The position numbers and the translations under genes are program-made. Shown one piece after another: positions 29,192 through 32,130 of a stretch of 64,000 nt of DNA. Numbering within the stretch: the stretch's first letter is position 1; each line of letters opens with the position of its first letter. Source of the stretch: Escherichia coli (GTDB taxonomy: Bacteria; Pseudomonadota; Gammaproteobacteria; Enterobacterales; Enterobacteriaceae); assembly GCF_044324785.1 (NCBI RefSeq), contig NZ_CP172127.1; one strand, written 5' to 3'. Below the pieces are notes generated by a model. The model did no database searches and was not told the DNA's origin. It saw nothing but the letters and a program-made list of their open reading frames with translations.

Positions 29192-30808
29192 ATGCTCAGT
29201 CAAATTCAACGCTTTGGCGGCGCGATGTTCACGCCAGTGCTGCTGTTTCCCTTCGCCGGAATTGTGGTGGGTCTTGCCATCTTGCTGCAAAACCCGATGT
29301 TTGTCGGGGAATCACTGACCGATCCGAACAGTTTATTCGCGCAAATCGTACACATTATTGAAGAGGGCGGTTGGACGGTATTCCGTAATATGCCGCTGAT
29401 TTTTGCTGTCGGTTTACCCATTGGCCTTGCTAAGCAAGCACAGGGGCGTGCTTGTCTGGCGGTGATGGTGAGTTTCCTGACCTGGAACTATTTCATCAAC
29501 GCGATGGGAATGACCTGGGGAAGCTACTTCGGCGTCGATTTCACTCAGGACGCGGTGGCAGGTAGCGGGCTGACAATGATGGCGGGGATTAAAACTCTCG
29601 ATACCAGCATTATCGGCGCAATTATCATTTCCGGCATTGTGACGGCGCTGCATAACCGCCTGTTCGATAAAAAACTGCCGGTGTTTCTCGGCATTTTCCA
29701 GGGGACGTCTTATGTGGTGATTATCGCCTTCCTGGTGATGATCCCCTGCGCCTGGCTGACGTTGCTCGGCTGGCCAAAAGTACAAATGGGGATTGAATCT
29801 CTGCAAGCGTTCCTGCGTTCGGCGGGTGCGCTTGGGGTCTGGGTTTACACCTTCCTCGAACGTATTCTGATCCCAACCGGTTTACACCACTTCATCTACG
29901 GACCGTTTATCTTTGGTCCGGCAGCTGTTGAAGGCGGCATTCAGATGTACTGGGCGCAGCATCTGCAAGAGTTCAGTTTGAGCGTCGAGCCGCTGAAATC
30001 GTTGTTCCCGGAAGGCGGTTTTGCCCTGCACGGTAACTCAAAAATCTTTGGTGCCGTGGGCATTTCTTTAGCGATGTACTTCACTGCCGCACCGGAAAAT
30101 CGGGTAAAAGTGGCGGGCTTGCTGATTCCCGCAACCTTAACCGCCATGCTGGTGGGAATTACCGAACCGCTGGAATTTACCTTCCTGTTCATTTCACCGT
30201 TGCTGTTTGCGGTACACGCTGTGCTTGCGGCCTCAATGTCGACCGTAATGTATCTCTTTGGTGTGGTGGGCAACATGGGCGGAGGTCTGATTGACCAGGT
30301 TTTACCGCAAAACTGGATCCCGATGTTCAGCAACCACGCGGATATGATGCTGACCCAAATCGCCATTGGGTTGTGCTTTACCCTGCTGTACTTCGTGGTT
30401 TTCCGCACCCTGATTCTGCAATTCAACATGTGCACGCCGGGACGTGAAGATGCGGAAGTGAAACTCTACTCAAAAGCCGAATATAAAGCCTCGCGAGGCC
30501 AAACCACCGCGGCAGAGCCAAAAAAAGAGCTGGATCAGGCTGCCGGTATCCTGCAAGCCCTGGGCGGGGTCGGCAATATCTCCAGCATCAACAATTGCGC
30601 GACGCGTCTACGGATTGCACTGCATGACATGTCACAAACGCTGGATGACGAAGTCTTTAAAAAGCTGGGAGCGCACGGCGTCTTCCGTAGTGGCGATGCC
30701 ATTCAGGTGATCATTGGTCTGCATGTATCCCAGCTGCGTGAACAGCTCGATAGCTTAATTAATTCTCATCAATCAGCAGAAAATGTTGCCATTACGGAGG
30801 CAGTATAA
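29192..30808 (+). CDS. glvC: PTS alpha-glucoside (arbutin/maltose-type) EIICB component, apparently intact (538 aa)
   Basis: Start set at the ATG with AGAGGA Shine-Dalgarno ([10 protein letters not shown]...); EIIC membrane domain followed by an EIIB motif ([12 protein letters not shown]). Confidence 0.85.
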
Positions 30809-32130
30809 TGACCAAATTCTCAGTGGTTGTCGCAGGCGGTGGAAGCACCTTTACGCCAGGCATCGTGTTGATGCTCCTGGCGAATCAGGACCGTTTCCCG
30901 CTTCGTGCACTGAAATTTTATGATAACGATGGCGCGCGGCAGGAAGTCATTGCTGAAGCCTGTAAAGTCATCCTTAAAGAGAAAGCGCCGGACATTGCGT
31001 TTAGTTACACCACCGATCCTGAAGTGGCGTTCAGCGACGTTGATTTTGTCATGGCGCACATCCGCGTCGGCAAATACCCGATGCGCGAACTGGATGAAAA
31101 AATCCCGCTGCGCCACGGCGTTGTTGGACAGGAAACTTGCGGACCCGGCGGAATAGCGTACGGCATGCGTTCCATTGGCGGCGTCCTGGAACTGGTGGAT
31201 TATATGGAAAAATATTCACCAAATGCCTGGATGCTCAACTACTCCAACCCGGCAGCCATTGTCGCAGAAGCCACGCGTCGTCTGCGCCCGAATGCGAAAA
31301 TCCTCAACATCTGTGACATGCCAATCGGTATTGAAAGCCGGATGGCGCAAATTGTTGGGCTGCAAGATCGCAAACAGATGCGCGTGCGCTACTACGGCCT
31401 GAACCACTTTGGCTGGTGGACATCAATTGAAGATTTGCAGGGTAACGACCTGATGCCCCAGCTGCGGCAATATGTCTCGAAGCACGGTTATGTTCCACCG
31501 CAGCAAGATACACATACTGAAGCGAGCTGGAACGACACCTATGCAAAAGCGCGGGATGTCCAGGCACTGGACCCGGATACATTACCAAACACCTATCTGA
31601 AATATTATCTCTTCCCGGATTATGTCGTTCAGCATTCCAACCCTGAACATACCCGCGCGAATGAGGTGATGGAACATCGCGAGAAACAGGTTTTCGATGC
31701 TTGCCGCGCCATTACGGCGGCAGGAAATTCAGCGGCGGGCAAGCTGGAAATTGACGAACATGCGTCATACATCGTCGATCTGGCGGCGGCAATTGCCTTC
31801 AACACCCAGGAGCGGATGTTGCTGATTGTGCCTAACAACGGGGCAATTCATAACTTTGATGATGAAGCGATGGTCGAGATTCCGTGTCTGGTCGGGCACA
31901 ACGGACCAGAACCACTGGTGGTCGGCGATATCCCGCAGTTTCAGAAAGGGTTAATGAGTCAGCAAGTGGCGGTGGAAAAACTGGTCGTGGACGCCTGGGA
32001 ACAGCGTTCATATCAGCACCTGTGGCAGGCGATTACGTTGTCGAAAACGGTACCGAGCGCCTCGGTCGCCAAAGCTATTCTGGATGAGTTGCTGGAGGCC
32101 AACAAAGCGTACTGGCCAGAGTTACGTTAA
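30808..32130 (+). CDS. glvA: 6-phospho-alpha-glucosidase, glycoside hydrolase family 4, 440 aa
   Basis: N-terminal NAD-binding [18 protein letters not shown]; start overlaps the glvC stop. Confidence 0.9.

Follow-up and report, generated by a model that had tools for sequence, protein, structure and literature searches.

A probably native and undamaged glvC-glvA operon of Escherichia coli, positional orthologue of the Klebsiella pneumoniae alpha-glucoside genes aglA-aglB

The glv operon found in the window (the whole stretch of 64,000 nucleotides of Escherichia coli DNA that was analysed) is very probably the native, undamaged E. coli form of this locus and the positional orthologue of the aglA-aglB alpha-glucoside system of Klebsiella pneumoniae. 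Its two genes, glvC (29192..30808, + strand) and glvA (30808..32130, + strand), are free of frameshifts and internal stops in the reading frames of the window and keep all the residues of their catalytic motifs. A preliminary description of this DNA had called both genes intact, and they are indeed full length and motif-complete here and damaged in K-12; alignment revealed neither frameshifts in them nor identical intact genes in K-12. The observation is correct but ordinary, because about 30% of sequenced E. coli share the intact version and its annotation already exists: both exact proteins are present in public databases under correct names, and RefSeq already names the product of the hydrolase gene 6-phospho-alpha-glucosidase.

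GlvC, the orthologue of AglA, is encoded by a single open reading frame of 538 codons and is assigned to the alpha-glucoside PTS EIICB proteins. Against TIGR02005, the model for alpha-glucoside-specific PTS IIBC, it scores 957.4 bits (cut-off 607.3 bits), with protein residues 2-523 aligned to profile positions 1-524, and the Pfam search recovers both PTS_EIIC and PTS_EIIB. In the EIIC domain, the motifs GLHH (230-233) and GITEP (322-326) align to the same motifs in the structure of E. coli PtsG (8QSR); the interdomain linker PGRED occupies residues 416-420; and the EIIB domain carries the conserved cysteine that had been pointed out earlier, the phosphorylatable Cys469 (codon at 30596-30598), with Arg472 and Arg474 in the motif NCATRLR. 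The motif residues of both domains are invariant in 66 orthologues. The open reading frame listed for this region is longer (28931..30808), and the 538-codon frame starts at an internal ATG. This ATG at 29192 is the real start and the N-terminal extension from 28931 is an artefact: the N-terminus beginning at 29192 is unchanged across about 50 orthologous loci and is preceded by a GAGGA Shine-Dalgarno sequence 6-8 nt upstream, the reading frame upstream of it closes after 1-66 codons in other genera, and the start given by RefSeq agrees.

The stop codon of glvC (TAA, 30806-30808) and the start codon of glvA (ATG, 30808-30810) share one base in the sequence TAATG, which is the stop/start overlap already noticed in the preliminary description. 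GlvA, orthologue of AglB and counterpart of the K-12 pseudogene glvG, is a full-length protein of 440 amino acids and a predicted NAD+/Mn2+-dependent 6-phospho-alpha-glucosidase of family GH4. It contains both the N-terminal and the C-terminal domain of the family (Glyco_hydro_4, PF02056, 224 bits; Glyco_hydro_4C, PF11975, 190 bits) and matches the structure of the K. pneumoniae 6-phospho-alpha-glucosidase (6DUX) with 917 bits over residues 1-439 and that of Bacillus subtilis GlvA (1U8X) with 750 bits over its full length. The protein has a glycine motif, GGGS, at residues 10-13, which we take to be the NAD+-binding motif, and Cys169-Asp170, His200 and Tyr263, offset by 2 from the B. subtilis numbering. 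The corresponding B. subtilis residues, C171, D172, H202 and Y265, are presumably, as in the literature on 1U8X, the Mn2+ ligands (Cys and His) and the catalytic Asp and Tyr. These residues do not vary in 79 orthologues. Both genes are under purifying selection, with dN/dS values against other genera of 0.08-0.10 for glvC and 0.03-0.05 for glvA; moreover, 15 of the 16 differences in glvC and seven of the eight in glvA that separate the window from E. coli strain 1190 are synonymous.

The old K-12 label 'arbutin-specific permease' would make glv a PTS for arbutin or aryl-beta-glucosides, and arbutin-type substrates had also been suggested for the present operon. The activity of B. subtilis GlvA in vitro extends to activated aryl 6-phospho-beta-glucosides, a fact that counts in favour of such a reading. 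The arbutin label, moreover, was still in use in Touchon 2009 (PMC2617782). We nevertheless hold a beta-glucoside system to be highly improbable. Arbutin-type substrates are unlikely because arbutin is a beta-glucoside and GlvC belongs to the alpha-glucoside subfamily: on the beta-glucoside and arbutin/salicin/cellobiose models it reaches only 43-45 bits, through the EIIB domain alone, as against 957 bits on the model for alpha-glucoside IIBC. GlvA likewise shares 90% identity with a phospho-alpha-glucosidase that has been characterised and is much more remote from the GH4 6-phospho-beta-glucosidases, with 212 bits as opposed to 917 for 6DUX.

For the damaged K-12 locus, strain DH1 was compared. 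Its annotation treats both genes as pseudogenes, the glvC region with an internal stop and glvG labelled 'frameshifted'. Alignment located the lesions as a nonsense codon and a deletion of 508 bp. Codon 369 of glvC (30296..30298, + strand) is CAG (Gln) in the window and TAG (amber) in K-12, where it splits the gene into 'glvC' and 'glvB'. The segment of 508 bp deleted from glvG in K-12 corresponds to 31401..31908 (+ strand), that is to glvA codons 198-367 including His200 and Tyr263, and, as the junction sequences indicate, it is bounded by a direct repeat of 8 bp, GAACCACT, with one copy at 31401-31408 and the other at 31909-31916. K-12 GlvC also has Q238 where the orthologues have an invariant Pro. 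The earlier statement that glvC is split and glvG is a pseudogene in K-12 is right, but frameshifts in the ordinary sense are not the cause.

Among 5426 complete E. coli genomes, the 508-bp segment is kept in 1652 (~30%), the exact K-12 deletion junction occurs in 2612 (48%) and yidP-glvC-glvA is wholly missing from about 1147 (~21%); an intact operon is thus nothing unusual. It is also carried, for example, by E. coli B, an O157:H7 strain and strain 1190. At codon 369, the 31-mer with CAG was found in 3330 complete genomes and the 31-mer with TAG in 348. That the integrity of the genes could be an artefact of assembly or consensus, masking a real lesion, deserves practically no credence: the exact 538-residue protein is encoded on 249 and the exact 440-residue protein on at least 1000 independent public contigs, and over 21.6 kb the window is 99.98% identical to GCA_044163535.1, an assembly made independently. 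The exact proteins place the source in E. coli, and an exact 36-mer spanning two SNPs particular to the window had no match among the GTDB species representatives. Two losses of the operon have occurred in E. coli, one by the 508-bp deletion and the other by deletion of the whole module. At least one full-length allele, that of strain CFSAN051542, has G112E and G125C at invariant glycines. Since there have been two losses within the species and a full-length allele has invariant glycines replaced, selection on the operon within E. coli is weak or niche-dependent. Horizontal acquisition was also considered, and was rejected because the G+C content of the operon (52%) equals that of the surrounding chromosome and the synteny is common to other Enterobacteriaceae.

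Divergent from glvC lies yidP (28180..28896, - strand), which encodes a GntR/HutC-type regulator of 238 amino acids with an N-terminal winged helix (GntR, PF00392, 74 bits; NCBIfam GntR models match as well) and a C-terminal effector domain (UTRA, PF07702, 107 bits). In about 45 species representatives it lies in divergent orientation beside orthologues of glvC and glvA, and it is deleted together with glvC-glvA in the E. coli genomes without the locus; YidP is probably the linked regulator of the operon and likely a repressor. On the other side, yidL (32127..33020, - strand) encodes an AraC-family regulator of 297 amino acids (Pfam AraC_binding and HTH_18), is convergent with glvA and overlaps its stop codon by 4 nt. 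The preliminary description had placed the operon next to yidL, and this adjacency immediately 3' of glvA is real and could suggest that YidL regulates glv. It is the gene yidP, however, that travels with the operon: yidL remains in genomes from which yidP-glvCA has been deleted, is lost in genomes where glvCA remains, and in K. pneumoniae, as in most other genera, is not found beside the operon. It is inherited together with yidK-yidJ, from which it diverges, as part of a separate yidL-yidK-yidJ module, and we consider it very unlikely to be the regulator of glv.

Between yidP and glvC there is a control region of 295 bp (28897..29191), studied by alignment of 40-odd intergenic regions, by a search for repeats and by pairwise alignment with K. 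pneumoniae. Four blocks are conserved across Enterobacterales: TAGATCTC at 28900-28907, ATGTCTA at 29015-29021, AACGTAGAT at 29034-29042 and AAAAGCATGAAAGCGATCACGAATC at 29059-29083. An inverted repeat is formed by GTCTAC (29017-29022) and GTAGA (29036-29040) with a spacer of 13 nt, and the AAAAGCATGAAAGCGATCACGAATC block contains a CRP-like half-site, TCACG; the inverted repeat and the TAGATCTC box would be candidate operator elements for YidP, and the half-site a candidate part of a CRP site. A simple scan found neither a sigma-70 consensus promoter in the intergenic region nor a terminator after glvA. To propose a class-I CRP-dependent promoter, with TATCCT at 29120-29125 and a CRP-like site centred near 29071, would be unsupported speculation.

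The following scheme is suggested by the families of the proteins. GlvC, a membrane EIIC fused to a cytoplasmic EIIB, would import alpha-glucosides and phosphorylate them at O-6 of the glucosyl unit, likely substrates being isomaltose, methyl-alpha-glucoside and sucrose isomers such as isomaltulose (palatinose). The Pfam domain search of GlvC found no EIIA domain, and the protein would therefore depend on EIIA-Glc; the phosphoryl group would pass from PEP through EI, HPr and EIIA-Glc (Crr, encoded elsewhere, outside the window) to Cys469. GlvA, which as a family 4 enzyme would need NAD+ and Mn2+, would then cleave the 6-phospho-alpha-glucoside to glucose-6-phosphate and the aglycone. YidP would probably keep the operon repressed as long as its UTRA domain has no sugar phosphate bound, and the conserved CRP-like site suggests additional catabolite control. 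According to PMC5309279, with reference to Pikis 2006 and Thompson 2001, the K. pneumoniae genes aglA/aglB enable E. coli K-12 to use isomaltose, AglA working with the host EIIA-Glc, and the B. subtilis genes glvA/glvC expressed in E. coli fail in a crr mutant.

By this scheme the operon would be expressed and would allow the source strain to grow on alpha-glucosides. Alternatively, the genes could be intact and the operon cryptic, as bgl, asc and chb are in E. coli, transcription being silent through tight repression by YidP or a weak promoter, an alpha-glucoside phenotype appearing only after an activating mutation, and the frames having simply not yet decayed in this lineage. Standard identification tables generally enter both methyl-alpha-glucoside and palatinose as negative for E. 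coli, which would fit a silent operon. The repeated loss of the locus in E. coli (the 2612 genomes with the deletion and the roughly 1147 without the module), the glycine substitutions of the CFSAN051542 allele and the result of the promoter scan speak in the same direction. So does the literature, which we searched without useful result for a phenotype on alpha-glucosides, palatinose or methyl-alpha-glucoside tied to glv in E. coli, and in which we found no expression or growth data for any E. coli carrying the intact allele, the source strain included. The related data found amount to two sets of negatives. The B2 type strain, which is expected from the B2 result of Touchon to lack the glv locus, gives negative results with palatinose, turanose, maltitol and methyl-alpha-glucoside (PMC4334874); E. 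albertii is likewise negative for such sugars in the literature. Our scan of related loci in species representatives included no true Escherichia species among the matches listed, a result with no bearing on E. albertii, E. fergusonii or E. marmotae. On the other hand, the substitutions that separate intact E. coli alleles are nearly all synonymous, the catalytic residues are all kept and the blocks of the control region that are shared with Klebsiella and further genera are still present. Taken together, these findings speak for a purifying selection that continues in this lineage, and hence for use of the operon. We therefore consider a silent operon rather unlikely and prefer an operon in use.

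As a tentative extension, the three allelic states (intact, ~30%; one ancient 508-bp deletion, ~48%; yidP-glvCA module absent, ~21%) might mark a real ecological split, in which the intact lineages would grow on dietary or plant alpha-glucosides (isomaltulose and other sucrose isomers, isomaltose) and YidP would be a phospho-alpha-glucoside-responsive repressor acting at GTCTAC-N13-GTAGA. If this were true, glvCA would be a usable metabolic marker and would underlie a so far undescribed catabolic phenotype of E. coli. The polymorphism in itself is a tidy case of ongoing gene loss and involves no new mechanism. Beyond correct annotation the significance is small: K-12 is once again a poor reference for sugar catabolism in E. 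coli, the ancestral glv operon being a complete alpha-glucoside PTS with its phospho-alpha-glucosidase. To make industrial K-12 strains use isomaltose and panose, foreign aglAB or glvAC genes have been introduced into them (PMC5309279); the native E. coli allele is a possible alternative to these foreign genes, and K-12 would regain it once the 508 bp are restored and a single base is changed.

Of the known systems, aglA-aglB of K. pneumoniae (Thompson 2001 and Pikis 2006, as cited by PMC5309279; AglB structure, PDB 6DUX) shares with the present operon the gene order (divergent GntR regulator, EIICB, GH4 hydrolase), the chromosomal position after ibpB-yidE, in the ibpB-yidE-yidP neighbourhood, and the lack of an EIIA domain, with amino-acid identities of 81% for the EIICB, 90% for the hydrolase and 79% for the regulator. 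It differs in that in E. coli the unrelated yidL-yidK-yidJ module comes after the operon, and in that the function of the E. coli copy is a prediction. The glvC-glvB-glvG genes of E. coli K-12, described as cryptic or truncated (Reizer 1994, as related in PMC5309279), occupy the same locus with about 98.7% nucleotide identity and an identical layout of yidP and the control region, and are set apart by the amber codon, the Q238 substitution and the 508-bp deletion, through which GlvA residues 199-367 are lost. In the maltose system glvA-glvR-glvC (malA/malP) of B. subtilis, GlvA is about 74% identical, all its catalytic residues being kept, and GlvC about 60% identical; the system also combines PTS uptake with GH4 hydrolysis, and it works in E. 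coli with Crr. There, however, the hydrolase gene comes first and, to judge from a title cited in PMC5309279, GlvR is a positive regulator, whereas the regulator in E. coli is of the GntR/HutC type.

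A single 538-aa reading frame, glvC (29192-30808, + strand), is followed by a 440-aa frame, glvA (30808-32130, +), the TAA of the former and the ATG of the latter sharing one base (TAATG), and both genes are preceded by a GAGG-type ribosome-binding site. GlvC reaches 957 bits with the NCBIfam alpha-glucoside-specific PTS IIBC model (cut-off 607 bits) and carries the Pfam EIIC and EIIB domains without EIIA; GlvA carries both Pfam GH4 domains and matches the K. pneumoniae 6-phospho-alpha-glucosidase structure 6DUX over its whole length (917 bits) and the B. subtilis GlvA structure 1U8X (750 bits). 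These matches, together with the intact frames, therefore confirm the preliminary description of an EIICB gene overlapping a family-4 6-phospho-alpha-glucosidase gene, and the reading of that pair is likewise supported, although the type of K-12 lesion, the regulator, arbutin and rarity need correcting.

The ORF list places the start of glvC at ATG 28931, within the divergent intergenic region. This extension is an artefact and the start is 29192, as initially proposed, because some 50 orthologous loci share the same GlvC N-terminus, located 6-8 nt downstream of a conserved GAGGA, other genera have a stop in the upstream frame after 1-66 codons, the alpha-glucoside IIBC profile begins at residue 2 and RefSeq also uses 29192. 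GlvC has kept its motifs GLHH (230-233), GITEP (322-326) and, around Cys469, the EIIB site NCATRLR; 66 orthologues have them without change, and they line up with the same motifs in the structure of E. coli PtsG. GlvA retains GGGS (10-13), Cys169-Asp170, His200 and Tyr263, all invariant in 79 orthologues; the last four correspond, with an offset of two, to B. subtilis GlvA C171, D172, H202 and Y265, which we take to be Mn2+ ligands and acid/base residues (1U8X). Against the Citrobacter, Klebsiella and Raoultella orthologues, dN/dS is 0.03-0.05 for glvA and 0.08-0.10 for glvC, and the G+C content of the pair (52%) is like that of its flanks. The convergent glvA and yidL overlap by 4 nt at their stop codons (32127-32130) and a scan found no terminator-like hairpin at this junction, so that each transcript would extend into the opposite gene in antisense orientation.

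The preliminary description of K-12 glvC and glvG as damaged is correct, but the lesions are not the frameshifts that had been expected. The RefSeq annotation of the K-12 derivative DH1 reports an internal stop in a pseudogenic glvC region and calls glvG "frameshifted". Alignment of the window with DH1 shows that codon 369 of glvC, CAG in the window (30296-30298), is TAG, which shortens the EIIC domain and creates a separate "glvB" frame from Met378, and that glvG lacks 508 bp (window 31401-31908) lying exactly between two copies of GAACCACT; with this deletion, residues 199-367, among them His200 and Tyr263, are lost and the frame is shifted. The K-12 damage thus consists of a nonsense mutation in glvC and a deletion in glvG mediated by repeats. 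In addition, position 238 of K-12 GlvC is Gln, while Pro is found in 66/66 orthologues.

Among 5426 complete RefSeq E. coli genomes the glv locus is present in 4279; the 508-bp segment is present in 1652 (30%) and the exact K-12 deletion junction, counted by 31-mer as were the two codon alleles, in 2612 (48%). The CAG allele occurs in 3330 genomes and the amber allele in 348, which among the matches listed are K-12-type laboratory strains. The whole region is covered in, among others, O157:H7 and E. coli B, and over 21.6 kb an independent assembly is 99.98% identical to the window. Since the intact pair already carries the RefSeq names "PTS sugar transporter subunit IIB" and "6-phospho-alpha-glucosidase", and the exact window proteins are in public databases under these names (GlvC on 249 contigs, GlvA on at least 1000), the intact form is already known and common. 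In the approximately 1147 genomes (21%) without the locus, yidP, glvC and glvA are deleted jointly and yidE abuts yidL, in agreement with Touchon et al. 2009 (PMC2617782), where glvC is listed as one of the functions that phylogroup B2 lacks.

Loss of the operon in the species by two routes, and the G112E and G125C substitutions at invariant glycines in the full-length glvA allele of E. coli CFSAN051542, make a cryptic or decaying operon a real rival to one in use, and our literature searches yielded neither expression nor growth data for E. coli carrying an intact allele. We nevertheless consider crypticity less likely than not for this strain, because variation between intact alleles is almost exclusively synonymous (15/16 differences in glvC and 7/8 in glvA against strain 1190), a pattern that argues for continued use in the lineage of the window.

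The window is an oriC-proximal section of the chromosome, with the order tnaA, mnmE, yidC, dnaA, dnaN, recF, gyrB, dgo operon, ibpAB, yidE, yidP, glvC, glvA, yidLKJ, emrD, tisB/istR, ilvBN, uhp and adeD. Between tnaC/tnaA and mnmE, where K-12 has no gene, lies a 728-aa ORF (2275-4461, +; G+C about 36%) with a Pfam ShET2 enterotoxin N-terminal domain (172 bits), whose RefSeq homologue is a "ShET2/EspL2 family type III secretion system effector toxin"; it is found at 80% coverage or more in 765/5426 complete genomes. Two ORFs (42753-44054, +, 433 aa; 44269-45765, +, 498 aa) without matches in Pfam, NCBIfam or PADLOC occupy a low-GC island (33-36%) between ilvN and uhpA; some version, always annotated "hypothetical protein", occurs in 1110 genomes and is unusually divergent (best match 96.3%, most 80-95%). 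The island is probably one reason why the wider 24-kb region reaches no more than 97.7% identity with any complete genome. An inverse autotransporter adhesin of intimin/invasin type (57215-64000, +; at least 2262 aa; 62% G+C), in which an IAT_beta domain precedes many Big_1 and Invasin_D3 repeats, continues past the window end; the ORF list, which omits frames running off the end, has only spurious antisense ORFs there (61588-63966 and 60934-61509). All the expected small RNAs and RNA elements occur, each with a full score: istR (40057-40186, 150 bits), AsdA, antisense of dnaA (9583-9663), the ROSE_2 thermometer upstream of ibpA (25307-25379) and ES036 (15140-15182).

The regulator of the operon is probably YidP, encoded divergently (28180-28896, -), rather than YidL (32127-33020, -), the AraC-type neighbour pointed out at first. 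In fact, among the matches listed for species representatives of Enterobacterales, Aeromonas and Vibrio, the yidP(-)/glvC(+)/glvA(+) triplet is found in essentially every gammaproteobacterial locus with enough flank, and yidL-yidK-yidJ follows in only a handful; in E. coli either module can be missing independently of the other, yidP-glvCA being deleted with yidLKJ kept, or yidLKJ exchanged for an IS200/IS605 remnant with glvCA kept; and YidP has the GntR helix-turn-helix and UTRA effector domains of a HutC-type protein. In some E. coli, such as CFSAN051542 (9628-11408 of that locus, from about window 32130 onward), the exchanged segment contains a tnpA remnant and an InsQ/TnpB RNA-guided endonuclease gene, and yidL is reduced to a 75-nt stub. 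Three loci of Kluyvera and Superficieibacter species representatives (L008, L010, L029) carry a second, tandem module directly downstream, with a diverged yidP-like regulator (56-61% identity) and a second glvA, and in L029 also a second glvC. Several stretches of the 295-bp yidP-glvC control region are conserved between genera and have putative regulatory roles: TAGATCTC at 28900, the inverted repeat GTCTAC-N13-GTAGA (29017-29040) and a 25-bp block with a CRP-like TCACG half-site (29059-29083). A simple scan of this region found no consensus sigma-70 promoter, which is compatible with an activator-dependent promoter or a silent one.

By homology, GlvC would import and 6-phosphorylate alpha-glucosides by means of EIIA-Glc, and GlvA would hydrolyse the product to glucose-6-phosphate and an aglycone. 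Arbutin-type substrates, suggested initially, are unlikely, since GlvC matches the beta-glucoside and arbutin/salicin/cellobiose models by its EIIB domain only (about 43-45 bits) and GlvA is much closer to alpha-type than to beta-type GH4 enzymes. Results reported in PMC5309279 support the mechanism in relatives: E. coli expressing B. subtilis glvA and glvC uses isomaltose and panose but fails to do so in a crr mutant, K. pneumoniae aglA and aglB confer isomaltose use on E. coli K-12, and EIIA-Glc, the crr product, interacts with AglA. The aglA/aglB genes of K. pneumoniae occupy the same position as the E. coli operon, in the order ibpB, yidE, divergent GntR gene, EIICB gene and hydrolase gene, with amino-acid identities to the window of 81% for the EIICB, 90% for the hydrolase and 79% for the regulator.
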